From IMG/VR virus record IMGVR_UViG_3300045988_171958, positions 1 to 64,000 of that record: a DNA stretch of 64,000 bases; one strand, written 5' to 3'. This document shows positions 5,946 to 57,009 of this stretch, in pieces; position 1 is the first letter of the stretch; each line of letters starts with the position of its first letter. The position numbers were made by a program, and so were the translations under genes. The notes beneath the pieces were generated by a model. It had not been told where the DNA came from and ran no database searches. It saw only the letters and a list, made by a program, of their open reading frames with translations. The DNA comes from a virus.

Positions 5946-5948
5946 ATA

Positions 5949-22900: not shown

Positions 22901-23754
22901 CTAATATTAAAGATGATGAGTTATCTTCTATACAAGAACAGTTTGATATATATACTGATATACTGAATGATGCCATCAAGTCTTATAAGAAGATAATTAA
23001 ATTCAAACAGAAGTTAGAGAAAGAGACTAAAGATAATGCCGCAAGCATAGTGATATCACTCTCTGACATACCTAAAGAGATGGTCAAAGGAATATCAGAG
23101 ACATTTGTCTACTTGAATACCAAAAATTTGTCTAAGAACATACTGATGTTTGGTCCTATGATGGAGGATTACTATAGTGGAATGAAGATGTTGTTTGATG
23201 TTTATGATGAGGCTCCAAAAGATACTTCTAAATATGATAATGTCATAAATGCAGTAAAGGGTATCAATGTAGAAATAAGTAAAGTAAAGAATACATCCCA
23301 GTTTAGAACAGAAACTCAAGATGTATCTAAGTTTACTAGATCTATAAATACTTTGGATGTGGCTAAAGCTCAAACAATGACTAATCTCATAACTGCATTA
23401 GACCAAATGGCAAGAAGATTAGGTGGTCTTGACAAATTAACAAATACTTTGGCAAATAAGTTAGCTGTTGTATTGGATAAGCTTGTAAGAGAACTTAAGA
23501 TATCTGCTAAGACTATAAATCAAGCTGATGAAATGCAGAAGAAACGTCATGCTGCTATAAAGGATTCTATTTCTAAGATAAGTACATTGTTAAATAAACC
23601 AGTAGAAGTAAATGTAAAGCAAGTACAGGATACAGAAAATTCAACTATGCAATATGGTGACACTTCTACTCCTGGACAAAACAGTGCTGAAAGAGATGAA
23701 ACCCCAGCAGGAGGTAATCCATTAAATAGTCAAACTCAACAATCTAAAGAATAA
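16915..23754 (+). CDS. Tape-measure-like giant protein (coiled-coil N-terminus, multi-TM core, repeated C-terminal modules)
   Basis: 2279 aa. It has 3 x 55-aa tandem repeats, about 20 hydrophobic G/A-rich helices (~19660-21200), and four ~95-aa modules of the form ..L.IPIY...GK..G.R.LTDADF..AA.NI (21420-22580). Confidence 0.6.
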   Translation: MAKISDEAVRRSKGVNLPGGIPQKDNNSITGELSSIVKEVSKDIIKHIDEVYSGVDLIFNGLLDPSQYKLSQSDMALMSFISGGQSISKDQSYSSRQTNIQQFAKSISENLNKTNKILTSDGMQVIVTNFNEQKLKKEKPQNVEVKVPEIKPVINIPDYSKQLDVLRFTIERSSKIASDNIIKVLTTKNEIKEKPQNVEVKVPEIKPVINIPDYSKQLDVLRFTIERSSKIASDNIIKVLTTKNEIKEKPQNVEVKVPEIKPVINIPDYSKQLDVLRFTIEKSNKTASDNIIKVLNSNTNNQTNPVDLNNLQIKIDDLNLSKESKDVLKDLSNALNSVAKVKYEVKDQNIVQYLIGIDKSISKIDIDNLKKKISKVNKLLTNDFAGLCKAINSASINSKKNMSQLSSIVELMNGIPSIGEIDKQKMKTLKKNLHSIYWMTSKSNILTGLGITSKGIISAIIENIVARSKEAGQGGFKSVGALAKFIESLVSLGEDTNVDRTKIMKSQMALWSLLRIYDVKGPIAYLTLQIKELGDNILKDNVVGKNNSSLSAIEDMIEDISTIGNYIKFKDVVYSQLLATYALGSAWLYIGIVKSLSKIDDTELKKLIGDNGKLAFVMQVVQRLSANESTSKDIKSATKTLVQLVIMMSVANMISKVSKNGIVGISDALVFLDKLDFLGQKIFTMQDSAINDESVPNIMKNCENMVLSLGKIAVVSTIAGMFVDKGKEGVSNMKTMVTQLKYLVNNINNKKNPLIASKDDVSKIESCQKIVESLTKLSILAAVGGLFAVKGQDGIREYKKVVTKLKSLIKRIQSDGLDINQEDLKKIDNIEKLIEKLTIVSMLGSAMGITAPLSILGFKSMQLSAVAVGKMIDTLGKIEINDDFFDKLKNIGIVVAIASATMLVGAVIGKIVLQRMPEILGFTFALGTFILGVIGAYNLATKGMDEALEQTKKVALLIYMSGATLLLGAAVMMIPGIFTNAVLFTLSLAAFIGAVTFAYTLASERIERTIEISDSFIKLVVKSGLILAFGAAVNAFLPTGSVLGFAFSLTLLITGVIGAYTIASNMIEETMSSAEEFAWLIGIAGLTLLLPTIYMTKHPVLFATALLFAFELGVFVFLMKLAYSGGDFAANYIGAKLGVVQSTDKAIDDAKNFAILVGISGAILLLGAAIMNIDGMFWSAIGFTLTLSAFLLGISAAYWGANKMLGGQKGMMIAHEFSNLVALSAATLLVGGLFMMIPNMAVATVSFAGILGGFVAGITLAYGFAGKIINEKTLFLGYALSALVLVSSIALLTGGMLMMNYPDLDINILKFLGLEFVLVGGTAVILGILGAVKSKLKTGALALIGVIACVGLAGYAMMEIVKLRDKIGDDWGGIWATIGTTVAVLFTFAAGVIGLGYLSAGTGGLGALALAAGEAALAGIIGCVLLAGKAMQEIIKVMDMASKLERVDTSIITDDIKAMLSIIWELKPFMNPLIDMLIVAASGTITSLGYMMSKLSEGIQDYANLSIPIYGEGGKIVGRRNLTDADFTDAAENIKTIITILGGTILDTYKENPDIFSNGMLGDFLGMDTPFTRVVKSCTGMGKMIDNIAEGVKDMADLKIAIYKGTDKVGYRRLTDADFNSAAANISTIVTCLGYAILDLYDNAPEGMFDSGWLGNMIGVKTPFGRVVTGCTGLGKMISSIAKGVKDVADLRIPIYSSDGKQKGTRPLDFKDFINAAFNTQLIVSCLGNAIMSLGSNPKTAWMFEDQSLIFKDGTCSRFAQIVTALKGIGSLISETAKGVKDVAYLRIQKYDPNGKLLKGQYEKIPVESLRPKGAVYKNVTALMSCIPAAVMSIYDAHSKDWFEDAGWFSNDGSTSPFAKVKNCLSGLDKLVAANVKSIKSILELKLDPLKMIELSNIITVMISSVPDAVMKATMDENQEELKPFFENAEDNIKKISSSYSSYTKLLNNIVSSYSDILKLKSKFGKEDDIHELNKIVDAVLTQLPFSMSRAIQKMPNIKDDELSSIQEQFDIYTDILNDAIKSYKKIIKFKQKLEKETKDNAASIVISLSDIPKEMVKGISETFVYLNTKNLSKNILMFGPMMEDYYSGMKMLFDVYDEAPKDTSKYDNVINAVKGINVEISKVKNTSQFRTETQDVSKFTRSINTLDVAKAQTMTNLITALDQMARRLGGLDKLTNTLANKLAVVLDKLVRELKISAKTINQADEMQKKRHAAIKDSISKISTLLNKPVEVNVKQVQDTENSTMQYGDTSTPGQNSAERDETPAGGNPLNSQTQQSKE
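17324..17818 (+). repeat. 165-bp tandem repeat x3 (55 aa each)
   Basis: ACCACAGAAT recurs at 17331, 17496 and 17661. Copies 1 and 2 look identical; copy 3 diverges near its end. Confidence 0.9.
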
Positions 23755-33706: not shown

Positions 33707-34360
33707 ATGATAAATTTCAATTTCATAATTGATTGCTTAGCTTCATTAAATACTATGAGGAATGATGTTGGGTCTATGAAAAACATCAATATTCTTTCTG
33801 ATATGATTAAAGAAGCTATATTGGACAATCAAACAATATATATTACAGGAATAGGTAAGCCAGGATATATAGCTCAAAAGAATGCTGCCACATTGAAATC
33901 AATAATGGTTGATGGACAATTCATAGATGCGTGCTTAGCAGGACATGGAGATTTAGGACCTATTTCAACTGACAAACCATCTTTGTTGATTGCTATGTCA
34001 AAATCTGGATGTTCAAATGAACTTTATGTGTTGTTCAAATACATGAAACAATTGCGACCAAAATGTAAAATTGCAATGATTTGCATGTCAAATGAAATGC
34101 AATTGAATAAAGTAAGGTCATGTAAAGATATTGATTTTATTTGCCATATAAAGACAGATCCAGGAGAGTTGGATGGATTTGGAATTGTACCGGCTACATC
34201 AAATATAATATTTGAAGCAGTAATGTCCACAGCTATATCTGGGGCATTCAATTCAGAAGAGCTTGGTATGGTAAACATGTGTGAAAGATTGCAAAAGAGT
34301 CATCCATCAGGAACATTGCAATCAAAAGTTACTAATCTTTTGAATACTTTAAGAAATTAA
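33707..34360 (+). CDS. SIS-domain sugar-phosphate isomerase, KpsF/GutQ-type (D-arabinose-5-phosphate isomerase-like, no CBS domains)
   Basis: ITGIGKPGYIAQKNAATLKS...AGHGDLGPI...IAMSKSGCSNEL matches G.GKSG.I..K.AAT..S...HGDLG...IS.SGE..E. Confidence 0.7.
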   Translation: MINFNFIIDCLASLNTMRNDVGSMKNINILSDMIKEAILDNQTIYITGIGKPGYIAQKNAATLKSIMVDGQFIDACLAGHGDLGPISTDKPSLLIAMSKSGCSNELYVLFKYMKQLRPKCKIAMICMSNEMQLNKVRSCKDIDFICHIKTDPGELDGFGIVPATSNIIFEAVMSTAISGAFNSEELGMVNMCERLQKSHPSGTLQSKVTNLLNTLRN

Positions 34361-34376: not shown

Positions 34377-34401
34377 CTATATTAGTATTGATTTAAAATT
34401 G

Positions 34402-35727
34402 ATGAAAATGAAAAAGAATTGTTTATTTGTTGTTCAGTCACATTATCCAGAAAGCCATTATATGGAGCTTAACTTAGAGTTAGTTTTTCCATTCTATTTG
34501 GTTACAGATGGAGAAAAAACTATAATTGAGAGAAAGATTGATGAGTTGCTTAATAAATATGATGGGGATATTTATGTTTATGAGGCATTTCATGAATATG
34601 CCGAGTTGCTAAATTCATTTCTTTGCCACAATAGAGAATCTTATGATAGAGTGCATGTAATTTCCGAAATTGATCGAATGGGTGATTTGACAAAAACTTT
34701 TTCTATTGAATGTTGGGATAAAGGTATCAGAGAAGAATTTGACCAAAAGAAATATCTTAGGGATTTGTCAACTAAAAATACATGCAGATATTTCAATCAG
34801 ATTAAAATTGAAGATGATAAAGTAATTAAGATTGCAAAGACAGAAGATGCTATCAAATTACAAAAAATTGAAAATGATTTCTACGACAAATATAGCAATA
34901 TACCATGTTTGTGCGGAAAACAAGGATATGATGAAAATAAACATGAATTGATTTTGAATAAAATCGACGGAGTAACAGCTCAAGAATGGTATTATAAAAA
35001 TGGTGATTTTAAGAAATTGATTTCTAATGTAATCAAAGCTTTACATACCATTAATGATGTTGATATAGATGTAGATGATGAAGATGAAGATATCAGAAGA
35101 GCATTCTACAATGAATTGATTGGAAAGGTATATACTAGGGTAAATCCATGTAAGAAATTGATTGATTATTTCATTGAAGAAACAGAAGTAAGGTGTATTG
35201 ATTACATGCCAATTACAACACATTTTAATGTATTGATGGATGCATTAAAGAAATGGTATGAAAATAATGAAATCAATTTCAATGCATGTCTTTGTCATGG
35301 TGACCCAAATACAGATAATACAATGATTGATAAAGATGGTAATGTAATCTTTATTGATCCTCGTGGATATTTTGGGAATCTTAAGACAATTGGATTAGGA
35401 ATGGCAGAATATGATATTGCAAAATTCTGCTATGGACTTAATGGATATTCAAGATTCAACAGTGCTCCTTATGTCACAATTGAAGAAATTGATTATTCTG
35501 ATGGTATGAATCTTAAATTAGAATATCCATCTGGTGATTTTTCTTCAATTACACAAATTGATTTGGATGATATGCCAATTGATACAAATATAAAGATTAT
35601 CGTTGGTATTATTTGGATGAAATTGACTTCATATATTATAAATGATCCAATGAAGAGTGTAATTGCTTATCTTTATGGAAATGCAATTTGTACAAAATAT
35701 TTAAAGGAATTAAAATATCTAAAGTAA
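34402..35727 (+). CDS. APH/choline-kinase-fold kinase (putative sugar kinase)
   Basis: CLCHGDPNTDNTMIDKDGNVIFIDPRG gives the HGD..N catalytic loop and the D of DxG. The track start at 34399 is TTG, so ATG 34402 is used. Confidence 0.6.
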   Translation: MKMKKNCLFVVQSHYPESHYMELNLELVFPFYLVTDGEKTIIERKIDELLNKYDGDIYVYEAFHEYAELLNSFLCHNRESYDRVHVISEIDRMGDLTKTFSIECWDKGIREEFDQKKYLRDLSTKNTCRYFNQIKIEDDKVIKIAKTEDAIKLQKIENDFYDKYSNIPCLCGKQGYDENKHELILNKIDGVTAQEWYYKNGDFKKLISNVIKALHTINDVDIDVDDEDEDIRRAFYNELIGKVYTRVNPCKKLIDYFIEETEVRCIDYMPITTHFNVLMDALKKWYENNEINFNACLCHGDPNTDNTMIDKDGNVIFIDPRGYFGNLKTIGLGMAEYDIAKFCYGLNGYSRFNSAPYVTIEEIDYSDGMNLKLEYPSGDFSSITQIDLDDMPIDTNIKIIVGIIWMKLTSYIINDPMKSVIAYLYGNAICTKYLKELKYLK

Positions 35728-44478: not shown

Positions 44479-46245
44479 TTATGAATCTATTGATACTACT
44501 AATGGGTCACCAATAGTAGATGGAGCAACAGTTATTTCATCTTCTGGTCTTGGCAATACACCTGAAGAAATGAGTTTTCTAACTAAATGATCTGTCTTTT
44601 CTCCTAAAGCATCTGTATCAATATTCTTTATTCTAAAGAAGTACTTGAAGTGTGAATAGTCAGATAGTTGTACTCCATAAAGATAAGAAGTATCAAACCA
44701 TTTTCCTGCACCCGCATATATACCACAATGATTCAATATAGTAGATTCATTCTTTACACCTATATCACCAGGTTTAAGATCATCAACAGATATTCTTTCC
44801 CAATCATTATCACTGAATAAAGTGAAGAAGTCAACACACATGTTAGGTGTCTTTACATTCAATGCCTTCTTCATTACATATTTGATATATCCAGAACAAT
44901 CCAATCCATATTCTGGTTTGTCTTTACCATGTATCTTATAGAAAAGACCTGGTTGCATAAGTAAGCAGTTGTACATTACTTCTTGTCTCTTACTAGATAT
45001 AAGTGACCAGTCATGTTCCCAAAGTTCAAGAATAGTATTTTTGTCGTATGATGTAAAGCATCTGCCTTTGTCTTGGCCAAATTCAAAATCATCAGTATGG
45101 TAGATAGCATTCTTCTTCATGTATGCTTCTATCTTATCTATCACAATGTCAAACATATTATGCTTGATTTGTTGTGATATTCCTTGAACACCCGGACTTG
45201 AATTATATTCTATTACAAAGTCACCATCAGTACAAGCCATCAAGTCAATACCAACCCATCTGCATCCAGAAAGCTTAGCAACCTTCAATGCAATTTCTTT
45301 TTGCTTGTCTGTCATCTGGTATTCTTCTGTCTTAGCTCCTAATGAGACATTGCTTCTGAAGTCGCCACTTATCTTATCACGTTTCATACAAGCAAGTATC
45401 TCATAATTAGCACCATCAACGGAAAATGCATGTACACGAATGTCACCAGTATTCTCTTTATATTCTTGTATGATGAATTCTGCTTCTTTATCCACAGCAA
45501 ACATAGCTTGCAGTATTCCTTCTATTTCATCATGATTGCAGATGAATACACCAATACCAAGACTACCATTCAGTATCTTTACTACGTATTGTCTGTTTTC
45601 TTTCAGTTCATTTATGTTCTCATTATCTTTATAGATAGAATCAAGCATCTTCCAGAAACTTTCTCTAGTATCGTGGCATTCTGTATTCAAGTCCTCCATC
45701 AATTCTCTTGTTATCAGTACATATCCTGGCTGTGGAATATTTTCTTTAGCCAATAAGTTAGATGCAAGATACTTGTCAGATGCCATGATGATTTCATCTA
45801 TAGTATTCAGCATGAAGAAACCTTCATATTCAAATGCCCTCATCAACCCAATATAGTTTTTCTTATTGTCATCATTAGCTTGACCTTGGAATATGATAGT
45901 ATCATGAATGTTAGAATGTTTCAATGAGAAATGCATGTCTGTTATATCATCATCTATAGATATGATATGATTAGAATAAGTAAATCGTACTGTTGCTTTG
46001 TTCAACCATACAAGATTCAGCTTTCTCTTATGACAGCAAATAGTCAAATAATCTTGATAAGACCAATCTTCTTCTTTTTCTTCTGCCGCTTCATCGTAAC
46101 TCTTTACTTTCTTTTCTCCAACATAGAAGCATATTACATTCTTTATTTCTAACTTGGTATCATTTTTCAGAAGCGTCATTGCTTCATTTATGTTTGCATG
46201 CCCTATGTTCTTATATTCTTTTTCCATTTTATTTACAAAGTTCAT
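44479..46245 (-). CDS. RimK-like ATP-grasp ligase fused to a C-terminal NlpC/P60 cysteine peptidase domain
   Basis: ATP-grasp motifs: KILNGSLGIGVF, GDIRVHAF, GDFRSNVSLGA, VIEYNSSPGVQGI. NlpC/P60 motifs: GLDCSGYIKYV ... PGDIG ... NHCGIYAG. Confidence 0.7.
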   Translation of the reverse strand: MNFVNKMEKEYKNIGHANINEAMTLLKNDTKLEIKNVICFYVGEKKVKSYDEAAEEKEEDWSYQDYLTICCHKRKLNLVWLNKATVRFTYSNHIISIDDDITDMHFSLKHSNIHDTIIFQGQANDDNKKNYIGLMRAFEYEGFFMLNTIDEIIMASDKYLASNLLAKENIPQPGYVLITRELMEDLNTECHDTRESFWKMLDSIYKDNENINELKENRQYVVKILNGSLGIGVFICNHDEIEGILQAMFAVDKEAEFIIQEYKENTGDIRVHAFSVDGANYEILACMKRDKISGDFRSNVSLGAKTEEYQMTDKQKEIALKVAKLSGCRWVGIDLMACTDGDFVIEYNSSPGVQGISQQIKHNMFDIVIDKIEAYMKKNAIYHTDDFEFGQDKGRCFTSYDKNTILELWEHDWSLISSKRQEVMYNCLLMQPGLFYKIHGKDKPEYGLDCSGYIKYVMKKALNVKTPNMCVDFFTLFSDNDWERISVDDLKPGDIGVKNESTILNHCGIYAGAGKWFDTSYLYGVQLSDYSHFKYFFRIKNIDTDALGEKTDHLVRKLISSGVLPRPEDEITVAPSTIGDPLVVSIDS

Positions 46246-47287
46246 TTATAGCTTCTACTAACTTTTCAAAGAACTTACAATTAGTTTCTTCTATGTTAGG
46301 GTCATTGATAGGAGAGCTCGGTCCAGGTGCACCATTCAATTCTACTACTATAGTGTTTCCATTCTGTAATGGTAGCATGTCAACACCACACCATTCAAGA
46401 CCAGATGCTTTAGCAGCTGCTAAAGCCAGCTTTTCTTGTTCAGAAGTCATCTTGTAGTCATCTTCCATGTCACAACCAAGACTGAGATTAGTTCTGAAGT
46501 CTTTACCTTTCTTTCTCATGATAGAAGACAATATCTTTTGCTTACCATTCAATGTAAGTACATGAGCTCTGATATCACCATCTTTTATATCTTGAAAGTC
46601 TTGTATGAGTATTGGACAGTTTTCCTTCAATTTGAACAAACATTGCAATATAGATACAATGTTTTTGCCACGACAGCAAAACACACCTTTGCCACCATGT
46701 CCATTCAGAATCTTACAAACATATTTTAATCCATCATCAAGCTTACCATAGAGTTGCTTTAGCTTTTCATCTAGCTTCTTATGATCTTCTTTATCTATAT
46801 CACCAGAAGTTGCAAGTACATATTTTGGTTGTGGAAGTTCTGCTTTTGTCAAGAAACATGCAGTTGCATATTTATCAGATGACATAGCTACTGCTTCTGG
46901 ATTGTTCAATATCAGTATATCTAATTCTTGTATAGCATCAAGTAAAGCTGATATCACTTCCTTAGTATATCCACTACGCATCAATACTACTGTGTTCTTA
47001 GAATCTGCTTTAGTAAGTACTACATCTGGCAAGTCTTTCTCTCCACTATATATGTGTACTTTATCATCTTTGAAAGAAAAGTTGAGCTTGGTAGGATCTG
47101 CATATTCTACTTTTATCTTATCTCTCTTAAGCATCTTTACAGAATTCAAGTAAAGTTCACCTATCAATATTATTCTTTCTACTTTCTTAAGCTTAGTATG
47201 ATTTTCTACTTTACTGTTACTGTTTTTTTCTACTATATATTCTATAGATTTCAGTTCAGTAATGTAGTTTGTTCCATTGTACTTCAT
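46229..47287 (-). CDS. RimK-like ATP-grasp ligase
   Basis: KILNGHGGKGVFC, GDIRAHVL, KDFRTNLSLG and VVELNGAPGPS. The track start at 47293 is TTG, so ATG 47285-47287 is preferred. The ORF overlaps the downstream gene by 17 nt. Confidence 0.7.
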   Translation of the reverse strand: MKYNGTNYITELKSIEYIVEKNSNSKVENHTKLKKVERIILIGELYLNSVKMLKRDKIKVEYADPTKLNFSFKDDKVHIYSGEKDLPDVVLTKADSKNTVVLMRSGYTKEVISALLDAIQELDILILNNPEAVAMSSDKYATACFLTKAELPQPKYVLATSGDIDKEDHKKLDEKLKQLYGKLDDGLKYVCKILNGHGGKGVFCCRGKNIVSILQCLFKLKENCPILIQDFQDIKDGDIRAHVLTLNGKQKILSSIMRKKGKDFRTNLSLGCDMEDDYKMTSEQEKLALAAAKASGLEWCGVDMLPLQNGNTIVVELNGAPGPSSPINDPNIEETNCKFFEKLVEAINELCK

Positions 47288-47324
47288 TTTCAAATTGAAT
47301 AAATCTTATATATGTAAAAATACT

Positions 47325-48576: not shown

Positions 48577-49722
48577 ATGAGTTGGAAACCTAATTTTGAT
48601 TACAGCAACAAGAACATGAACTTTTATAAAGTTGGTTGTAATTTCGATCCTAAATTGATTGATGTTGCTGTAGAGTTGAATAAGAAATATAAGGGTAAGT
48701 CACAGATTGTAGAATTTTTTGGATCTGATGCAAGTAATGAAGTAGTAACTGCAAGACCAGGTTGGAGATTGCCAGATATTGATAAAGAATTCTTTGCAAA
48801 TTATGTAAAGAAGTTGAAGGATAACAATATCGCATTCAACTATACAATGAATTCAATTCAGCCTTATGGTTCAAAAATGGAAATGCTGAATCATAAGAAA
48901 GATATTCAGGATCTTGTAAAATGGCTAGAAAATATTGGTGTAGCACGTATTACTGTGGCAAACCCAATGATGTTACTTTTTATTAGAGAAGTATCAAATA
49001 TTGAAATTGAGATGTCATGTATTTCTCATATTGATACTGTGACTCAGTTGAAGTATTATCATGAAACATTTGGAGTAAATAAGTTCTGTAATTCAATTCT
49101 TAAGAATCGTAATAAGCATTTCTTAATTAATGCACAGAAGTATTGTGATGAAAATGGTTGCATATTAGAATGTATGGCAAATGAATTTTGTGGAGTAGCT
49201 GGTGTTGATGGAAATGGTACTCATTATGCCACACATTGTGTATTTAGAGATTCTTGCTATCTCTGTCATGCAACAAACAAGACAAAAGAGGATAGTATGT
49301 CTTACAATAATTATCCAATGGGATATTGTATGTCAGCACGTTCATCAACTCCAGAAGCTTGGCTTCGTATGAGATTCATTAGACCAGAGGATCAAAAAAT
49401 TTATCGTGAAAATACTGGTGTAAATTATTTTAAACTTTCTGGTAGAACTGGTACCACAGATTATCTTGAATACATTATGAATGCATATATGTCAGAAAAC
49501 TATGATGGTAATCTTCTTGGTTTGTGGAAACCTCTTTCATCAATTTATGATGGAAAAACAGAATTGAAATCTAAAACAGATATTGATATTCCAAATAAGA
49601 AGCTTGATGGATTCATCAATAAGTGGATGGATGGAAATGGATGGGAATGTGCTGACCAGATGTGTGGTACAACCTGTGATTATTGTGCAAAATTTGCTAA
49701 AGAACATAACTTATATGACTAA
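48577..49722 (+). CDS. Peptidase-U32-family-like protein (putative Fe-S, prephenate-dependent hydroxylase of the RlhA/TrhP/UbiU type)
   Basis: TIM-barrel-like order resembles U32 proteins: ..IVEFFGSD...R......F...V..L...NIAFNYTMNS ... VARITVANPMMLLFIRE ... IEMSCISHIDTV. A Cys cluster follows: LECMANEFCGVAG...HCVFRDSCYLCH. The PROSITE U32 pattern matches only approximately. Confidence 0.4.
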   Translation: MSWKPNFDYSNKNMNFYKVGCNFDPKLIDVAVELNKKYKGKSQIVEFFGSDASNEVVTARPGWRLPDIDKEFFANYVKKLKDNNIAFNYTMNSIQPYGSKMEMLNHKKDIQDLVKWLENIGVARITVANPMMLLFIREVSNIEIEMSCISHIDTVTQLKYYHETFGVNKFCNSILKNRNKHFLINAQKYCDENGCILECMANEFCGVAGVDGNGTHYATHCVFRDSCYLCHATNKTKEDSMSYNNYPMGYCMSARSSTPEAWLRMRFIRPEDQKIYRENTGVNYFKLSGRTGTTDYLEYIMNAYMSENYDGNLLGLWKPLSSIYDGKTELKSKTDIDIPNKKLDGFINKWMDGNGWECADQMCGTTCDYCAKFAKEHNLYD

Positions 49723-50038
49723 TATAACTAACTCTGATTTGAAACTTCTCAAATCATGCAGAGCAGAAATTACAAGAGGTGACCGGTCATTGGTCAACCT
49801 CTTGATTTCTAGAATGAATAATGCTATATTGATAGGAAGAATCAAGAAGAAAGCAGATGAACCTATTGTACAACCAGACAGATGGAATCATGTAATGAAA
49901 AATGTGCATAAGCAATTAGAAGGTTCAAGACTTAGTACTGAATATAAAGAAGAATTTGACTATCTTATTGATAGTATATTCAATATTATTCATGAAGTAT
50001 CATGTAAATTGCAAGAAAAGGATCATGACAATAGATAA
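49715..50038 (+). CDS. Chorismate mutase type II (CM_2)-like protein
   Basis: 107 aa from ATG 49715, overlapping the upstream stop in ATGACTAA. LKSCRAEITRGDRSLVNLLISRMNNAILIGRIKKK...QPDRWNHV...HEVSCKLQ aligns with EcCM R11, R28, K39, D48/R51 and S84/Q88. The E52 position appears to be W. Confidence 0.5.
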   Translation: MTNITNSDLKLLKSCRAEITRGDRSLVNLLISRMNNAILIGRIKKKADEPIVQPDRWNHVMKNVHKQLEGSRLSTEYKEEFDYLIDSIFNIIHEVSCKLQEKDHDNR

Positions 50039-51137
50039 GAAATTTGTAGACGACCACATGCAAGATAAGAATATCTTGTACATACCTATTATCTCTTCTA
50101 TAAATAGAGAGACAAACAAGTATAATTTGGATAGTGATGGAAATGTAGTACGTTTTATTACATTTTTTGAACATCATAAGAATTTCAATACTTTGACAAT
50201 ATTGCTTCCAAAGAATAATGAATCACATGATATCATTGACAGGTGGGTAAAAGACAATGATAATATTGAAATCATTTGGTCAGATAATTTTGGTAAGCAT
50301 GCTGGTGAACAAAGAAGTGATTCTGATGTTGTGAGTAAGATGGAGATGGAATTGTTTGAACTTATAAATAATCCAGATAATGATAATGATTTCAATATTG
50401 TAATGTTTGAAAGTCAATTTTTAGGAAATTTATTGGTTGACCCATATTGGTTTAAAGGATTTGAAAAGGTTTTCTGGTGTCCAGTTTGTAAGATTGATAA
50501 TGAGCATACAAGAAATTTCTTAGAGGGATATGATAATTTGAATAAGAAATTGTTTCAACTTTCGGATTGGTCAATTGTAGAAAGTCCAACACAACTCAAG
50601 AAATTCTCTTTACCAGAATGTTCAATATACCCTTATTATATGATGATGGATCGCAATCTGAAATATTTTGATTATATGACAGATTTTGGATTGAAAGATA
50701 CTATTAAAACAGTTAAGAATCTTGATACAGGTACTTATTCTATTTATTATATTCCTTATAGATTGACTGATGAAGGATATAAAGTAGATGATGTTATTTC
50801 ATATATTAATTATGACTATGCTGATGTGGTTGTTGTGTATTATACAGATCCAAACAATAGTGGAGCAATGGAAGATTTGAAGAAAAAATTCAATTCAAAT
50901 GTTGTTTTCATCAAATTATCAACAGATAGAAATACACATTTTACCATGTTGTCATCAGAAGATGTTGTTGTACCATACTTTGAAGATTTAGATTTCATCA
51001 ATCATGCAACTTTATGGGAAATGATGTCATCAAAATCAAGATGTCAATTTGGAATAACTAAGGAACAATATGATATGAATTCATATAATATGAAATCTTG
51101 TGATAGATGTTTCTATATTGATTTAAAGAATTTATAA
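50025..51137 (+). CDS. Divergent T4 beta-glucosyltransferase (GT63)-like protein, paralog A
   Basis: Phage YSIYYIPYRLTDEG compares with T4 BGT LDVIYGGSFRSGQRE, and FINHATLWEMMSSKSRCQF with FITLRVWETMASDAVMLI. ATG 50025 overlaps the CM stop. Confidence 0.4.
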   Translation: MTIDKKFVDDHMQDKNILYIPIISSINRETNKYNLDSDGNVVRFITFFEHHKNFNTLTILLPKNNESHDIIDRWVKDNDNIEIIWSDNFGKHAGEQRSDSDVVSKMEMELFELINNPDNDNDFNIVMFESQFLGNLLVDPYWFKGFEKVFWCPVCKIDNEHTRNFLEGYDNLNKKLFQLSDWSIVESPTQLKKFSLPECSIYPYYMMMDRNLKYFDYMTDFGLKDTIKTVKNLDTGTYSIYYIPYRLTDEGYKVDDVISYINYDYADVVVVYYTDPNNSGAMEDLKKKFNSNVVFIKLSTDRNTHFTMLSSEDVVVPYFEDLDFINHATLWEMMSSKSRCQFGITKEQYDMNSYNMKSCDRCFYIDLKNL

Positions 51138-51147
51138 ATGAAATAAA

Positions 51148-52371
51148 ATGAATCATGATAGTATTTTATTAAAAATCTTTTTTAATAAAGAGAATAAGAT
51201 AATTGGAGGAAAAGTAGCAAGGATAAAAAGAATATTCCCAAACATATTGTCTTATTTAAATAAAAGATATCCTGATTCATTTTCTTTAAAAGAAACTCTA
51301 ATTAGGATGAAATATCATATTGATGTTCATCCAAAATGCCCGGTTTGTGGAAATTTTACAAAGTTTTATGGGTTTAAAAATTTGATGTTTGCAAATCATT
51401 GTTCTAACAAATGTACTCAATTAGATAGTGAAACTAAAATAAAATTTAAACAAACTTGCTTTAAAAAATATGGGGTTGATGCTCCAATGAAATCTTCTAA
51501 AATAAAAGAAAAATCTAAACAAGTTTGTTTAGAAAAATATGGTGTGGAAAATATATCACAATTTTTTGAAACTAAAGAAAAATATAAACAAACTTGTTTA
51601 GAAAAATATAATGTTGATAATCCATTTAAATTAGAAAAAACGAAAATAAATTCACATTCAAAAGAAGCTAAAGAAAAGCAAAGAAAAACTTGTTTAGAAA
51701 AGTATGGAGTAGAAAATTCATTCCAATCAAAAGAAGTTAGACAAAAATATAAAGAAAATTATAAAAGAAAATATGGAGTAGAAAATCCATTTCAAAACGA
51801 AATAATAAAAGAAAAGATAAAACAAACTTGTTTAGAAAAATATGGTGTTGATAGAGCAATTAAAAGTGATTTGGTAAAAGAAAAATGTAAACAAACTTGC
51901 TTGGAAAAATATGGAAGTAGTTCACCAATGAAAAACCCATATATTGTAAATAAATCTATAAATAAGAGAATTCAAAACAATACTTGGTCTACTTCAAAAC
52001 CAGAAGAAGAATTGTATCTTTATATAAAAGAAAGATTTCCATCTGTAAAAAGACAGTATAAAGATAAAGAAAGATACCCATATTTTTGTGATTTCTACAT
52101 TCCTGAATTAGATTTGTTTTTAGAATTGAATGGGACTTGGACACATGGAAACCATCCTTATGATATGAATTCTAAAGAAGACAATTCTATATTAAATATA
52201 TGGAAAGAAAAATCTAAAGAACATCCTATGTATTTAAGTGCAATAAAAACATGGGTTGTAAGTGATGTAAATAAGAGAAATAAAGCAAAAGAAAATCATT
52301 TAAATTTTAAAGAAGTTTGGAATTTAGATGAAGGAAAAGAATTTATAAATAAATTAACTAGAAGAGAATAA
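51148..52371 (+). CDS. Homing-endonuclease-like protein: Zn-ribbon, 7 C.EKYGV.N repeats, and a C-terminal PD-(D/E)XK/Vsr-like motif
   Basis: CPVCGN...HCSNKC at the N-terminus. The ~30-aa repeat K..C..KYGV.NP.Q occurs 7 times. The C-terminus carries YFCDFYIPELDLFLELNGTWTHG. Confidence 0.55.
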   Translation: MNHDSILLKIFFNKENKIIGGKVARIKRIFPNILSYLNKRYPDSFSLKETLIRMKYHIDVHPKCPVCGNFTKFYGFKNLMFANHCSNKCTQLDSETKIKFKQTCFKKYGVDAPMKSSKIKEKSKQVCLEKYGVENISQFFETKEKYKQTCLEKYNVDNPFKLEKTKINSHSKEAKEKQRKTCLEKYGVENSFQSKEVRQKYKENYKRKYGVENPFQNEIIKEKIKQTCLEKYGVDRAIKSDLVKEKCKQTCLEKYGSSSPMKNPYIVNKSINKRIQNNTWSTSKPEEELYLYIKERFPSVKRQYKDKERYPYFCDFYIPELDLFLELNGTWTHGNHPYDMNSKEDNSILNIWKEKSKEHPMYLSAIKTWVVSDVNKRNKAKENHLNFKEVWNLDEGKEFINKLTRRE

Positions 52372-52373
52372 AG

Positions 52374-53846
52374 ATGAATGTGATATTAGTAAGTGGTGGA
52401 TTACAGACTAGATTTAATGAACTTTCTTGTTTTCCTAAGATATTGTTGCCATCAAAAGATGGAACACCAATTTTGATTAAGCAATTAGATTATTTTGATG
52501 AAGCAAATACAGTAAGTATCGTTGTAAATCAAAAATTTGCAAAGATCATGAAAGCTTATATTGAAATCAATCATCTTAATGTTGATGTGATTGTATCTGA
52601 TAATACTAATGGTTCAGGCAATACTTTAGCTTCTGTATATGATTGGCTTCCAAAAAAGAATGTTTTGTTTTTCTGGTCAGATATTTTGTTTGATAATGAT
52701 GAATTCAAATTGGATAGAAAAATTGAAGATAAAGACAATTGTGTGATTTTTACTGTAAATGATGCAAAATATCGATATAAGATAGAAGATGGTAAGATTG
52801 TAAACAGATCATTTGCTTATGATGGAAATATCCCAGGTATCTTTTGGATCAAAGATATTTCAGAGGTTATTCCAACTAAACCATGTGATGAAAATAAAGA
52901 TTTGATTGATATCATTCAAGAAAAAGTGAATGATGGTATGATTACTTTTGTTGAGTCAAATATCAATACAAAGATTACTGAATATAAGTCATTATCAGAA
53001 TATAAGAAGATTATGTCAACTTCTTATCAGAAAGATTTAGTTTTACCTACTGATATGGAAGTTTCGTATACTGATAAAGAATCCATGCAATATGTAGCAA
53101 AAACAAATGAGCATTTGAATTATCAATATGACTGGATTTCTTTTTTATCTTATAATCCTGGAATTAGTGATTATGTTGTAGATATGCCAGTAAGTAAGAC
53201 AGAAGACGGATACGTTTGTGATATGCACAATCTTGAAGGATATACACATGCATCAAAGGTAAATCTTACTAATCTTTTAAACAATTTTGTAAGATATAAA
53301 GTAGATGTACCATTGTCAACATCTGTAAAATTTTTGTTAGAAGAATATAATGGTAAACCACTGAAGGGGATTTGTGATACATGCAGACTTTTTGAAAATA
53401 ACAGAACATTTGCAGAAGTTCAAACACTTATAGATAATGCATGTAATCTTCTTATAGATGGTTTAGCGAATGATGAATGGGTATTAACTCATGGAAACAT
53501 CAATTCTCATAATGTTCTTGTAAATATGACTGGTGATATCAAATTGTATAATCCAGTATCAAGAAGAAATGGATCTTTTTTCTGCCATCCAATTGTCGAC
53601 CAATCAGAAGCTTATATGGTAGAGATTGGATTAGATGAAGCTTTGAGAAAGGAAATGACATATAAAGTAGATGAACTTCCAAAGATAGAAGATTGTGATG
53701 TGTTTATTGAAACTGCTATCTATCTTCATTTACTTGGTATGCTTCCAATGTTTGCAAAAGATATTATGAAATTGAATATTGTATTGGAGTATGCTATTTC
53801 AGGATTGTCTAACATAATTAATGAATGTATTGATGGAAACAAGTAA
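52374..53846 (+). CDS. Bifunctional sugar-1-phosphate nucleotidyltransferase / APH-fold kinase
   Basis: The N-terminus ILVSGGLQTRF...FPKILLP is an NTP_transferase G-loop. The C-terminus LTHGNINSHNVLVNMTGDIKLYNP is a kinase catalytic loop. Confidence 0.6.
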   Translation: MNVILVSGGLQTRFNELSCFPKILLPSKDGTPILIKQLDYFDEANTVSIVVNQKFAKIMKAYIEINHLNVDVIVSDNTNGSGNTLASVYDWLPKKNVLFFWSDILFDNDEFKLDRKIEDKDNCVIFTVNDAKYRYKIEDGKIVNRSFAYDGNIPGIFWIKDISEVIPTKPCDENKDLIDIIQEKVNDGMITFVESNINTKITEYKSLSEYKKIMSTSYQKDLVLPTDMEVSYTDKESMQYVAKTNEHLNYQYDWISFLSYNPGISDYVVDMPVSKTEDGYVCDMHNLEGYTHASKVNLTNLLNNFVRYKVDVPLSTSVKFLLEEYNGKPLKGICDTCRLFENNRTFAEVQTLIDNACNLLIDGLANDEWVLTHGNINSHNVLVNMTGDIKLYNPVSRRNGSFFCHPIVDQSEAYMVEIGLDEALRKEMTYKVDELPKIEDCDVFIETAIYLHLLGMLPMFAKDIMKLNIVLEYAISGLSNIINECIDGNK

Positions 53847-53931
53847 GTTTAAGACATCAAGAAGAGTATTGAGAGAAGGTTTGACTTGGGCTGATTATTT
53901 TAAGTCCAAGCATACCTTAGAATATATCAAT

Positions 53932-54414
53932 ATGAAGAAAATCATAATTTCTGACTGTGATGGTATCTTGACTGATGGAAATATGACTTATGATGACAAC
54001 AGAAAACGATTTAAAACCTATGGTTGCCATGATAAGGAATTATTCAATATTGCTAAAGACCTTGGATGGGAATTCTTATTTGTAACAGATGATAGGACTG
54101 GATGTGATATTACAGACAGAAGAATAAGTAATTCTTTCATGTTACATGTTACAGAAGCTGATCCAAATGAAAGAGAAAAATTAGTTAAGAAATATAGGGA
54201 TAATGGATACATTGTTGCTTTTATTGGAGATAGTCCAAGTGATGTATCAGCTGCTGTAGCGGCAAATATATGTGCTACTACAGATAATTGCTTTGAATAT
54301 ATAAAACCATTTTTTCATTATGTTTCTAAATATCAAGGTGGACACGGAGGATTTGCTGATATATTATATCAACTAATGCTAATGGATAAAGATGATCTTG
54401 AAATCTATAAGTAA
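53932..54414 (+). CDS. KdsC/YrbI-type HAD phosphatase
   Basis: IISDCDGILTDGNMTYD...FKTYGCHDKE and IGDSPSDVSAA (HAD motifs I and IV of the YrbI subfamily). The start was set at ATG 53932; 53821 or 53833 are possible. Confidence 0.65.
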   Translation: MKKIIISDCDGILTDGNMTYDDNRKRFKTYGCHDKELFNIAKDLGWEFLFVTDDRTGCDITDRRISNSFMLHVTEADPNEREKLVKKYRDNGYIVAFIGDSPSDVSAAVAANICATTDNCFEYIKPFFHYVSKYQGGHGGFADILYQLMLMDKDDLEIYK

Positions 54415-54425
54415 ATCATAAAATC

Positions 54426-54470
54426 AATACTGTATTTTTAATTTAGAAATAAATTTAAATACAGTATTTT
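54426..54470 (+). terminator. 12-bp hairpin ending 2 nt before the next start codon (terminator, attenuator or processing site)
   Basis: AATACTGTATTT (54426-54437) pairs with AAATACAGTATT (54457-54468), followed by TT and then ATG 54471. Confidence 0.45.
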
Positions 54471-55700
54471 ATGATTAAACATATAGAAGAACCTAGTGGA
54501 AAGGGAAGAATAGCATGCATATCTTTACCAGTAAGACATATACTAGTGAATAGAGACAATATCACCATGTATAATGTATATCATTATTGGAAGTATTTGA
54601 CAGAATTTTTGAAATATGATAAAGTATATATATTGACAACATCGTTGTCTAATTCTGGTGAAAAATATAATAACATATTGAAAGATTGCCCATTGATATA
54701 TGGAATTGAAAAGAAAGACTTGTTATTAGATTATCATATAAATGACATGTGGATTGTTCCAGCTCAGACAAATATATTTGGTGGAATGGCTATTATGACC
54801 TTTCCATTTTGTATGAATAGAATATATGAATGGTGGAAATCAAAATCTGCATCAGATAAGATGATATTCATTAATGATGATCCAGAAGTATGTAAGCTTT
54901 GGTTTTTCCGATATCATACTAATCGTTATGCTATTAAGAAAGATGCAAGGATAGTGTGGAAACAAGGAATAAATCAAGATAATTGGAATACAGAAATTGA
55001 TTTGTTAGAATCAAGATATGATGATATATGCAATATGGAAAATGATTTTGATTTGGCATTTTGTGGATTAGATTATGATAAATATGTTAAAGAGTATGGG
55101 ATAAAGGTCTTGCCAAAATCTTGGTTTAATTTCAATGTTTACTATTACATTACATTAAATGATGATTTAGATTTGAGAATGAGAAATTATGACTTTAATG
55201 ATAAGAAATATTCTGCTTGCTATTATGGATATATTAAAGATTTAGATAGAATAGCTAGAACAGAAGAATTTTACAGTAAAGTTGATAAGCCATTTTTAGT
55301 AATTAAAGGAGGTAGTAAGAATTTCTTTAAACATGTAGATTTTGACCATGATATAGATCTTGTAAAAAATATGCCTTATTCAGATTTGCTAAAATTTGTT
55401 CCATCAAATGCTAAGTCTTCATTAATAACACATAACAAATGTATATTGGGTAATCAAGTATCACCAAGATGGTTTGATTTGATGCTTATGGATATTGTAT
55501 GTTTTGTTGACGAAGCTTTTGATCCAAACCATGAATTGTGTGATGATTGGCTTTATGAACATACATATTGTAAGAATGGACAAGATTATGCAGACAAGCT
55601 TAAGAAAATAGAAAACAACGAACCATTATATAGAGAGATTGTTCAAAGACAACGTAAGTTTGTATTTGAAAAGTATGAAAAATATCTCCCGAAATTCTAA
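54471..55700 (+). CDS. T4 beta-glucosyltransferase (GT63)-like DNA glycosyltransferase, paralog B
   Basis: Phage versus T4 BGT (recalled from memory): PAQTNIFGG / VNSSINFFGG; KMIFINDDPEV / KIYYLFTDIRLPF; YSACYYGYIKD / LDVIYGGSFRSG; VSPRWFDLMLMDIVCFVDEAFDPNH / ITLRVWETMASDAVMLIDEEFDTKH. Confidence 0.6.
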   Translation: MIKHIEEPSGKGRIACISLPVRHILVNRDNITMYNVYHYWKYLTEFLKYDKVYILTTSLSNSGEKYNNILKDCPLIYGIEKKDLLLDYHINDMWIVPAQTNIFGGMAIMTFPFCMNRIYEWWKSKSASDKMIFINDDPEVCKLWFFRYHTNRYAIKKDARIVWKQGINQDNWNTEIDLLESRYDDICNMENDFDLAFCGLDYDKYVKEYGIKVLPKSWFNFNVYYYITLNDDLDLRMRNYDFNDKKYSACYYGYIKDLDRIARTEEFYSKVDKPFLVIKGGSKNFFKHVDFDHDIDLVKNMPYSDLLKFVPSNAKSSLITHNKCILGNQVSPRWFDLMLMDIVCFVDEAFDPNHELCDDWLYEHTYCKNGQDYADKLKKIENNEPLYREIVQRQRKFVFEKYEKYLPKF

Positions 55701-55731
55701 TTTATATATAAAGTATATTAAATTGATTAAT

Positions 55732-55821
55732 ATGAAATGGGTAGAAAATAAAACACAGATTCCTATTTATGGATATCAAATATCTACAGATGGTAAGAAG
55801 TATATTTATGTTTGTAAATAA
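55732..55821 (+). pseudogene. Possible remnant of a NUMOD4-type homing endonuclease N-terminus (29 codons)
   Basis: MKWVENKTQIPIYGYQISTDGKKYIYV resembles the E.W..I.g...Y.vS..G.v motif. It is too short to be a functional HNH enzyme. Confidence 0.25.
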
Positions 55822-55823
55822 AA

Positions 55824-56426
55824 ATGGAAAAAATTCGGATCATAGTTCTTGAAGGTTGTGATAGAACCGGTAAAGGAACATTATTGGAAAATTTAAAGAA
55901 TAGATTTGATGATTTTTTAGTATATAATCCAGTATCAGCAGAGAAGGAAAAGGTAGATTATAAAAATCCACAGAAATTTGAAGAGTGGATTAAGAAAACA
56001 ATTCGTAAAGTACTTGATGACTTATATACTATGTCAAAGTTGAATGGTACTGATAGACCTATTGTAATGGATCGTCTTTTACTTACAGATAACGTATTTG
56101 CAGATTTATTTGATCGTAAACATGTAGTGGAAAAGTATTTTGGTAGAGAAATTGAAGCAAACTTCAAATTGACTAATTACATTATGCTTTGGAGAAATCC
56201 AGAAGAGTATAAAGATCGAGTAAATTTGTTGAAAGAAAATCAAGATTTTACAGAAAAAGAAATTGATGATATTCTAAGTTTATTCAATGAATATAAGAAA
56301 TCAAATGATATAGTAAAGTTGATTGACAATACAGATACACCAGAAGATATATTAGATGATTTTGTATCAACATTTATTGAAGAAACCCCTAAATGGAAAT
56401 TAGAACATGATAGTACAACACACTAA
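55824..56426 (+). CDS. Thymidylate-kinase/dNMP-kinase-like P-loop kinase
   Basis: IIVLEGCDRTGKGT (EG.D..GK.T P-loop) and MDRLLLTDNVFA (DR..S..aY-like). Confidence 0.55.
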   Translation: MEKIRIIVLEGCDRTGKGTLLENLKNRFDDFLVYNPVSAEKEKVDYKNPQKFEEWIKKTIRKVLDDLYTMSKLNGTDRPIVMDRLLLTDNVFADLFDRKHVVEKYFGREIEANFKLTNYIMLWRNPEEYKDRVNLLKENQDFTEKEIDDILSLFNEYKKSNDIVKLIDNTDTPEDILDDFVSTFIEETPKWKLEHDSTTH

Positions 56427-57009
56427 AACATTGAATTATACAAAACCTACAGATTTGTTCAATTATATTATAGATACATATAAGGATGAACAGTATATGA
56501 AAGATTATGTTCTTAGTGCATCTAGAACAGAAATTTTAGAAGATTATACAAGTAGGAAGAAGGTAATGGTAACTGATGTTTTACCGTTAGGTGAAAAGGA
56601 CTATGATAAAGATGCATTAGATTTTGCTACACAACTTGGATGGGAATTTACATTATATTCAGATAATAGTATATGCCCATTATATGATGAACAGGATTGG
56701 TTAGCAAGTTGGAATTGCTACCATTATGATGATGTAGAAAAAATATGTACTTATATTCGTTCAAAGAGAAATAATGGATATACAACAGCATTCATTGGAT
56801 ATAAGATGGAAGATGTATTTGCAATGTTTGAAGCAAATTATAGTGGTACTTGTGTTGATGCATTACAATATACAAAGCAATATTGTGATTTTGTATCTGA
56901 TAGGACATTCAATTCATTTGCCTTTGCTGAATTGTTAGTACATATAGTAAAACAAGATGTGAAGAAATTCTTAAGAGAAAATTTCCAAAAATATTTTATT
57001 AAAAAGTGA
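56407..57009 (+). CDS. Degenerate KdsC-like HAD-fold paralog (nucleophile motif lost)
   Basis: It shares LGWEF, IGYKMEDVFA and the C-terminal F.FAELL with the 53932 gene, but SDCDGILTDG is replaced by VTDVLPLGE. Confidence 0.45.
   Translation: MIVQHTKTLNYTKPTDLFNYIIDTYKDEQYMKDYVLSASRTEILEDYTSRKKVMVTDVLPLGEKDYDKDALDFATQLGWEFTLYSDNSICPLYDEQDWLASWNCYHYDDVEKICTYIRSKRNNGYTTAFIGYKMEDVFAMFEANYSGTCVDALQYTKQYCDFVSDRTFNSFAFAELLVHIVKQDVKKFLRENFQKYFIKK

Follow-up and report, generated by a model that had tools for sequence, protein, structure and literature searches.

Here we consider a pair of overlapping genes, encoding a U32-like protein and a small chorismate mutase, in the IMG/VR virus record IMGVR_UViG_3300045988_171958. 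The window (the whole stretch analysed, 64,000 nucleotides) corresponds to positions 60,653-124,652 of the 293,853-bp contig CACVDK010000001.1 (GCA_902729945.1, an uncultured metagenome assembly); together with 20 kb of flanking sequence (L134 and L135), the contig sequence covered comes to 82 kb of 294 kb. The source is a huge phage with a GC content of 31%. Related contigs of 148-293 kb are present in IMG/VR and in other assemblies, and megablast of the region against 50,697 phage records gave no match. The two genes are as follows.

48577-49722, plus strand: divergent U32-family protein of 381 aa with a predicted TIM barrel (PF01136, PHROG 5757, hhalign, AlphaFold2/Foldseek); ortholog of RB69 ORF050c
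49715-50038, plus strand: AroQ-class chorismate mutase of 107 aa, the proposed prephenate supplier (PF01817; profile matches to 1ybz and 1ecm)

The U32-like gene and its coupled chorismate mutase

The two open reading frames (ORFs) overlap by 8 nt at ATGACTAA, which holds both the mutase start codon (ATG, 49715-49717) and the U32 stop codon (TAA, 49720-49722), an arrangement that the initial annotation of this DNA had described correctly. A third gene starts at an ATG at 50025, 14 nt ahead of the mutase stop codon, and overlaps the mutase in turn; an independent gene call on the source contig predicts the same three genes. From 48577 to 57009 all genes are co-directional, and neighbours either overlap or are separated by no more than about 120 nt. 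A scan for promoters and terminators scored no higher than shuffled sequence, and the case for an operon thus comes solely from the gene overlaps and the spacing.

Profile and structure comparisons agree in placing the 381-aa protein with the U32 family. The search with the Pfam hidden Markov model (HMM) PF01136 (Peptidase_U32), one of the checks that the initial annotation had suggested, scores 26.2 bits against a gathering threshold of 22.4, and precomputed PF01136 matches are carried by most homologs; the match to PHROG 5757, labelled 'peptidase', has an E-value of 5e-115. When a profile of the phage family is aligned by hhalign with a profile built from E. coli UbiU, UbiV, TrhP and RlhA, the two match over 213 columns (E 2.9e-6, 88% probability). 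An AlphaFold2 model of the protein is predicted with high confidence (pLDDT 90.8, pTM 0.90), and its top Foldseek match in the Protein Data Bank (PDB) is 5D88, the only solved U32 protein (E 2e-8), the other matches being generic TIM barrels. At 50% identity the subfamily comprises 974 clusters at E <= 1e-3 and 563 clusters at E <= 1e-10.

The initial annotation had also credited this protein with the Cys cluster of U32 proteins. While the family assignment stands (PF01136, hhalign, 5D88), the canonical cluster does not, as the Cys residues are arranged differently: C205-x15-C221-x5-C227-x23-C251, followed by the C-terminal set C358-x4-C363-x3-C367-x2-C370. Scored over 122 family representatives, down to 26% identity, no sequence departs from Cys at 205, 221 and 251 (100%); at 227, 59% have Cys and 40% have His; and the four C-terminal Cys are retained in 93-95%. 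The profile alignment places C221, C227 and C251 on C169, C176 and C232 of UbiU, which are ligands of its cluster; a K-x-x-G-R motif is common to both proteins, and at the position of UbiU C193 the phage protein has no Cys. The Cys set appears to be a variant arrangement rather than a loss of metal sites. Two metal sites are probably present in the single phage chain, with Fe-S clusters their likely occupants, and this two-site chain may parallel UbiU-UbiV, a heterodimer that has two clusters. We also observe that residues 358-370 contain CGTTCDYC, in which the CxxxCxxC spacing is combined with an aromatic residue ahead of the final Cys, a pattern typical of radical-SAM clusters. Here it lies at the very C-terminal end of a protein with a U32 TIM barrel, and it is conserved across the family to the extent given above.

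The assignment of the 107-aa protein as chorismate-mutase-like, likewise made in the initial annotation, is well borne out, and the overlapping pair as first described is real and far above chance. Pfam CM_2 (PF01817) covers it over the full model (1-80 of 80) at 53.5 bits against a cut-off of 27, and a profile of its phage homologs matches the PDB mutases 1ybz (3e-16), 2d8d and 1ecm (1e-6). The catalytic residues R11, R28, K39, R51, S84 and Q88 of the E. coli enzyme (EcCM) correspond to R16, R33, K44, R56, S96 and Q100, while D48 is replaced by Q53 and E52 by W57. The Trp at the E52 position had been raised as a possible sign of inactivity, a concern that now carries less weight: the same Gln and Trp (or Tyr) are seen in the cellular fusions of DAHP synthase and chorismate mutase (DAHPS-CM) of Bacteroidales, Paludibacteraceae and Myroides, and since Trp is the norm at this position in the Bacteroidota fusions, it need not point to inactivity. 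The window mutase differs from EcCM and these fusions in being a stand-alone protein, in a 7-residue insertion ahead of helix 3, and in falling below the cut-offs of the NCBIfam equivalog models (all 19 of 19 matches, the best being TIGR01805 at 36.7 versus 71.2 bits). A tblastn search of phage records with the 107-aa protein gave no match, and it took PHROG, HMM iteration and a T4-type query to recover the mutases of T4-like phages.

Relatives of the window phage provide a further view of this gene. At locus L009, where the U32 protein is 83% identical to that of the window, the gene overlapping the U32 stop codon encodes a DAHP synthase with a C-terminal mutase domain, and this domain is 52% identical to the window mutase. 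At L013-L016 a DAHPS-CM fusion lies within the cassette about 600 nt upstream of U32. Across L009 and L013-L016 the fusion either takes the place of the small mutase or occurs alongside it. Among named cellular proteins, Bacteroidales enzymes come closest to the fusion (about 45% identity). Taken at the level of sequence, the small gene is best read as a genuine shikimate-pathway gene, not a chance helical protein, and one of probable Bacteroidota origin.

The glycosylation cassette and the distribution of the pair

The third overlapping gene leads into a set of genes most of which have homologs, in phages RB69 (gp45-55), DLP3 (gp76-83) and HY126 (Afh), in the pathway that places arabinose on 5-hydroxycytosine (5hoC) in DNA.

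33707-34360, plus strand: arabinose-5-phosphate isomerase homolog, RB69 gp55 type (phrog_5670, 6e-23; tblastn; hhalign 98.7%)
34399-35727, plus strand: sugar kinase, C-terminal half of AfhE/gp52:53 (phrog_4098 positions 199-505, 6.7e-55; tblastn E 1e-29)
50025-51137, plus strand: glycosyltransferase GT1 of 370 aa, RB69 gp46:47-type homolog (hhalign 98%, E 2.3e-13, 280 columns)
51148-52371, plus strand: DUF7487 protein of 407 aa (PF24308, 2.4e-40)
52374-53846, plus strand: sugar-1-phosphate nucleotidyltransferase-domain protein (tblastn to gp52:53; phrog_4098 positions 4-192, E 4e-26)
53821-54414, plus strand: HAD-family phosphatase, candidate for a sugar-phosphate step (PF00702, 28.5 bits)
54471-55700, plus strand: second glycosyltransferase with a T4 beta-glucosyltransferase-like C-terminal region (phrog_7922, 1.4e-7; weak Glyco_trans_1_2)
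55824-56426, plus strand: thymidylate-kinase-like nucleotide kinase, RB69 gp45 homolog (phrog_761, 1.2e-9)

Intermediate sequences link GT1 to the RB69 gp46:47 type over its full length (E 1e-49 to 1e-54), at a pairwise identity of about 23-26%, and Lee et al. assigned the gp46:47-type enzyme as the first (base-proximal) arabinosyltransferase acting on 5-hydroxycytosine (PMC13326640). The nucleotide kinase matches the RB69 gp45 family by hhalign (96.8%, E 2.6e-10). The bifunctional AfhE/gp52:53 enzyme of T4-like phages is here represented by two genes 17 kb apart, the nucleotidyltransferase at 52374-53846 being the counterpart of the N-terminal half, with an extra C-terminal region of 300 aa, and the sugar kinase, which also has APH and fructosamine-kinase Pfam matches, that of the C-terminal half. 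The HAD phosphatase has weak homology to the RB69 gp51 type (hhalign 43%), and its family adjoins U32 in L013-L020. Judged by homology, the window holds counterparts of all components of the arabinosyl-5hoC system of RB69, DLP3 and HY126 except the hydroxylase. There are also differences from RB69. The window cassette is spread over separate sites, with AfhE in two pieces and a beta-glucosyltransferase-like enzyme as an additional member. RB69 lacks a mutase but has a ThyA-type 5-hydroxy-dCMP (5hodCMP) synthase; in the window phage the mutase is present, and no such synthase was found in 82 kb.

Some neighbouring features should be recorded here. At L018, L019, L020 and L046, GT1 and the thymidylate-kinase-like kinase are fused into single proteins of 550-606 aa (e.g. 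L020 5237-7057), a fusion that ties the nucleotide step to the DNA glycosylation step. The DUF7487 gene has no counterpart at the equivalent position in relatives L007-L012 and probably represents mobile DNA inserted into the cassette rather than a member of the pathway; its product has repeated modules of the 'CLEKYGVxN' type and a nuclease-like C-terminal tail, resembling a homing-endonuclease-like insertion, and it lies between GT1 and the nucleotidyltransferase in the window phage only, the family occurring elsewhere in L013, L028 and L034. Directly upstream of the cassette, on the opposite strand, are two genes for RimK-type ATP-grasp ligases (44479-46245 and 46229-47293, minus strand), one with a C-terminal NlpC/P60 peptidase domain, in a position conserved among the huge-phage relatives. 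Farther upstream, two very large ORFs of 1669 and 2279 aa (11820-16829 and 16915-23754, plus strand) presumably encode virion or injection proteins.

Homologs of the U32 protein are widespread among T4-like phages. A tblastn search found full-length homologs at 46-49% identity in 222 phage records, and among the matches listed all are Straboviridae infecting Enterobacterales; they include RB69 ORF050c (gp50), orthologous to the window protein over its full length, and its PhAPEC2 ortholog. Among 43 IMG/VR loci carrying this U32, a GT1 homolog is near the gene in 37, an AfhE-type gene is found in 30, and a mutase in 23, in each case on the same strand and either overlapping U32 or no more than 621 nt away. 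A synthase with the L143E/D, D169N, N177D signature is present at 16 of these loci, and GT1 occurs without a signature-bearing synthase at 22. The usual order in T4-like phages is U32, in some cases a protein of 57-79 aa, mutase, 5hodCMP synthase, GT1 and kinase, with most junctions overlapping by 4 nt. In Shewanella phage Thanatos-2 the gene order is different, yet U32 (48% identical) is again coupled to the mutase, and the pairing is found also in Serratia phage 92A1. The T4-type mutase occurs in 51 isolate genomes, of phages of Klebsiella, Serratia, Yersinia, Enterobacter, Edwardsiella, Erwinia, Pectobacterium, Providencia and Shewanella; a few records already name the gene chorismate mutase, beside a 'peptidase' or 'collagenase'.

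The 57-79 aa protein (RB69 ORF049c type; L001 7167-7391, L002 7164-7403) is conserved and free of Cys; in many T4-like phages its gene lies between those for U32 and the mutase or synthase, in translational coupling with them. We considered whether it might be a degenerate mutase and rejected this, as it has no similarity to the mutase and no Pfam match; a role in assisting the U32 enzyme is conceivable.

The synthase is found in 374 phage records, including 57 from Acinetobacter and 20 from Rhizobium. For the 222 records with U32, ten organisms are listed, with counts down to 3, and neither of these two hosts is among them. In Acinetobacter phage fHyAci03, HMM searches find neither U32 nor mutase, and a phosphatase gene abuts the synthase where the enterobacterial phages carry U32 and mutase. 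DLP3 makes tri-arabinosyl-5hoC without a U32 protein (PMC13326640), and U32 is thus dispensable for the sugar branch of the pathway.

The O2-dependent synthase and the anaerobic setting

The ThyA-type 5hodCMP synthase, represented by RB69 gp48 and DLP3 gp80, uses flavin mononucleotide (FMN) and derives the oxygen that it inserts from O2 (PMC13326640). It therefore cannot operate under anoxia. No ThyA-type synthase with the L143E/D169N/N177D signature was found in the window and its flanks (82 kb), and none lies within 10 kb of U32 in close relatives. In a pattern-limited scan of IMG/VR for synthase loci, among the matches listed (80 of 108), none is on a related huge-phage contig; the same scan recovered T4-like contigs with both synthase and U32. 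A candidate that we rejected is the ThyA of L022, a 230-kb contig on which this gene (5512-6363) occupies the synthase slot beside GT1, kinase, AfhE and U32. Its L143, D169 and N177 are canonical and its relatives are ordinary ThyA proteins, so that it is not a jumbo-phage 5hodCMP synthase, and for the same reason the search at that locus is silent on whether the window phage has a synthase elsewhere.

Other features are those of an anaerobic setting. About 7 kb past the 3' end of the window are genes for the class III anaerobic ribonucleotide reductase NrdD and its radical-SAM activase NrdG (contig 130.5-133.6 kb; L135 17216-20330). NrdD is encoded in two consecutive ORFs of 505 and 348 aa, about 225 nt apart, followed by NrdG, and may represent a split or interrupted nrdD gene. 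A scan of 185,579 species-representative genomes found this type of U32 in just six contigs of metagenome-assembled genomes, all binned with gut-type anaerobes, with a GC content of 27-38% and with the same phage cassette. The U32 type of the window is thus essentially viral.

These observations should be set beside what is established for cellular U32 proteins. The characterised systems (UbiU/V, TrhP and RlhA) are all linked to O2-independent, prephenate-dependent hydroxylation, and two of them act on C5 of a pyrimidine, TrhP producing ho5U34 in tRNA and RlhA producing ho5C2501 in 23S rRNA (PMC10990095, PMC6599085). For UbiU/V, prephenate is the oxygen donor (PMC10990095). The proposed U32 chemistry is a two-electron oxidation of the ring by Fe-S clusters, quenched by hydroxide from prephenate decarboxylation (PMC10990095, PMC6599085), and as of 2024 no in vitro assay had been reported for any U32 hydroxylase (PMC10990095).

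The phage protein resembles UbiU-UbiV in its U32 fold and family, in the K-x-x-G-R motif and three aligned Cys, in prephenate dependence (established for theirs, conjectural for the phage protein), and in what would, for the phage protein, be the role of anaerobic partner to flavin- and O2-dependent hydroxylases. It differs in that UbiU-UbiV is a heterodimer with one [4Fe-4S] cluster per subunit that needs UbiT, whereas in the phage protein both Cys sites are on one chain; the substrate of the former is a polyprenyl phenol and that of the latter would be a pyrimidine, and the similarity is remote (E 3e-6, profile versus profile only). With TrhP and RlhA it would share not just family membership but also prephenate-dependent hydroxylation of a pyrimidine at C5, and the pairing of TrhP with the O2-dependent TrhO (PMC6599085) follows the same dual-pathway logic that we propose for the phage module. 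Unlike the phage protein, TrhP and RlhA act on RNA polymers, have extra C-terminal domains (453 and 653 aa in total) and the canonical CX6CX15CX3C motif, and neither is associated with a mutase of its own or with glycosyltransferases. As for the ThyA-type synthase, the proposed product is the same, 5hodCMP for DNA glycosylation, and the two genes adjoin in T4-like phages, while the synthase has an unrelated fold (thymidylate synthase superfamily), an FMN cofactor and O2-derived oxygen. One further phage system consumes prephenate in modifying cytosine C5 of DNA by chemistry drawn from tRNA modification, the CmoA/CmoX carboxymethylcytosine pathway of Synechococcus phage S-B43 (PMC12783734). There, however, prephenate serves CmoA in making carboxy-SAM, with no U32 protein and no hydroxylation. 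We rejected a CmoA-type use of prephenate for the present module, as no CmoA-like partner is found beside the window pair or in the related cassettes.

Candidate functions and their significance

Overall, we lean towards the view that the U32 protein and the mutase form an O2-independent, prephenate-dependent pyrimidine C5 hydroxylase module that feeds DNA glycosylation. Our results show to which families the two proteins belong, that their genes are coupled, that the cassette has known homologs and how the genes are distributed among phages; prephenate dependence, hydroxylase activity, the substrate and Fe-S binding we infer by comparison. The general pathway can be outlined as follows. The mutase would convert host chorismate to prephenate and, having no regulatory domain, should not be limited by host feedback control; in the relatives, the DAHPS-CM fusion would also raise flux through the shikimate pathway. 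The U32 enzyme would then hydroxylate cytosine at C5 with prephenate as the oxygen donor, the clusters presumed to be held at its two conserved Cys sites removing two electrons. The substrate would most likely be dCMP, and less likely cytosine already in DNA. We favour dCMP because a nucleotide kinase is conserved in the cassettes and fused to GT1 in some phages, and because an intermediate common with the adjacent dCMP-specific synthase of T4-like phages would be the most economical arrangement. The 5-hydroxy nucleotide would be phosphorylated by the cassette kinase and incorporated into DNA, and its hydroxyl would be glycosylated by the coupled GT1 homolog and the second glycosyltransferase, the nucleotide sugar being supplied through the products of the isomerase, kinase, nucleotidyltransferase and phosphatase genes.

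Where T4-like phages infect facultative anaerobes, the module would complement the adjacent FMN- and O2-dependent synthase by working under anoxia; in the gut phage of the window, it may be the sole route of hydroxylation. Each genome copy has about 91,000 cytosines, and stoichiometric use of prephenate on this scale would explain a mutase that is unregulated or fused to DAHP synthase. We advance more tentatively, and with somewhat less than even confidence, the stronger proposal that in huge phages of strict anaerobes U32 with the mutase or DAHPS-CM is the only cytosine hydroxylase, that all of the roughly 91,000 cytosines take their 5-oxygen from prephenate, and that RB69 gp50 is an anaerobic backup in coliphages.

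Much of this was foreshadowed in the initial annotation, which had suggested that the pair makes prephenate to drive C5 hydroxylation of a pyrimidine for the adjacent glycosyltransferases. Comparative evidence now favours that suggestion: the pair is coupled into what appears to be a 5hoC cassette, the pairing recurs in distant lineages, DAHPS-CM replaces the mutase in relatives, and U32 is missing, among the records listed, from the 5hoC phages of strict aerobes. The same annotation expected any outcome to be new for a phage, and here the result is divided, in that the enzyme route would be new while 5hoC in phage DNA is already known (PMC13326640) and the U32 and mutase genes, some of them annotated, occur in many sequenced T4-like phages.

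At the same time, a number of our results weigh against this interpretation. The phage protein is, by every comparison, a remote subfamily distant from the characterised U32 proteins: the Pfam match covers only residues 109-170 (model positions 3-64 of 233), a span of just 62 residues, PDB searches with the protein by phmmer and by profile HMM gave chance matches only, hhalign against each E. coli U32 protein singly was insignificant, and the family link comes only from the four-sequence profile, Pfam and Foldseek. The canonical U32 motif CX6CX15CX3-4C, as in TrhP and RlhA, is not kept. A ThyA-type synthase could be encoded elsewhere on the contig, in the roughly 211 kb beyond the 82 kb examined. 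No T4-type dCTPase was found in those 82 kb, so that replacement of dC may be incomplete. The correlation of U32 with host oxygen lifestyle is confounded by phage phylogeny. Among Escherichia phage records, 177 have the synthase and 137 have U32, which leaves about 40 with the synthase alone. Finally, RB69-type phages carry U32 without a mutase, which is not contradictory because E. coli has PheA and TyrA.

Several other explanations of the pair have to be considered. The module might hydroxylate uracil, in dUMP or at U/T positions, to give 5-hydroxyuracil, with the diverged GT1 glycosylating 5-hydroxy-dU. TrhP makes ho5U in tRNA, the window GT1 is just 23-26% identical to the RB69 type, the genome is AT-rich, and the L022 cassette has a canonical ThyA, all of which speak for such a substrate. 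We nonetheless regard it as unlikely, given that the U32 orthologs of T4-like phages adjoin a dCMP-specific synthase in phages with arabinosyl-5hoC DNA, and that homology to the 5hoC system extends over the full length of GT1, the kinase and the sugar genes. We give no better prospects to the idea that U32 is a redox or tailoring enzyme for a sugar or heterocycle, with the mutase or DAHPS-CM an unrelated auxiliary gene that boosts aromatic amino acids. RB69 gp50 is labelled 'sugar or heterocycle reductase' in Table 1 of PMC13326640, a label that also tells against the hydroxylase interpretation, and the TIM barrel resembles KDO8P and DAHP synthases and aldolases as well. However, phages such as DLP3 and others of Acinetobacter arabinosylate 5hoC without U32, translational coupling of mutase and U32 recurs in distant lineages, the cassette itself contains the DAHPS-CM fusion, and no characterised U32 protein is a sugar reductase.

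Modification of host or phage RNA (ho5U34 in tRNA, ho5C in 23S rRNA) to tune translation during infection would fit the precedents of TrhP and RlhA, U32 proteins with pyrimidine substrates, and host tRNA or rRNA had been among the substrates first suggested for the pair. We now consider this quite improbable: the locus is inside a DNA-glycosylation cassette, as are 37 of the 43 loci, and is here coupled to a DNA glycosyltransferase homolog, the phage protein has none of the C-terminal extensions of TrhP and RlhA, and no tRNA gene was found in the window. A genuine collagenase-like protease, as implied by the 'peptidase' and 'collagenase' labels of GenBank and PHROG, is scarcely credible. Those labels are inherited from the family name, the literature now sees U32 proteins as probable hydroxylases, and the protein is cytoplasmic and rich in Cys sites, with genes of nucleotide and sugar metabolism around it and a link to the synthesis of prephenate. 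Lee et al., for their part, cite RNA hydroxylation pathways solely as using no synthase homolog (PMC13326640), and full-text searches of the accessible literature found no paper linking U32 to phage hydroxycytosine. The novelty would thus lie in the enzyme route, which joins the prephenate-dependent U32 hydroxylases to 5hoC hypermodification in phages.

A prephenate-dependent U32 hydroxylase in these cassettes would bear on a paradox. It was not until 2025-2026 that glycosylated 5-hydroxycytosine was shown to be a hypermodification of phage DNA, and the sole known entry enzyme for 5hoC needs O2, yet many such phages replicate in the anoxic gut. If our proposal is true, the U32 hydroxylase resolves this paradox, and it provides a function for RB69 gp50 and for hundreds of proteins annotated as 'peptidase'. 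It would be the first U32 hydroxylase to act on a DNA precursor and the first organic-oxygen-donor step in DNA hypermodification, extending this chemistry beyond quinones and RNA. The chorismate mutase and DAHP synthase genes of phages would in turn be explained as the supply of a stoichiometric co-substrate. The phage protein, a small single chain whose product should be readily detected in DNA, may also be a good system in which to assay a U32 enzyme.

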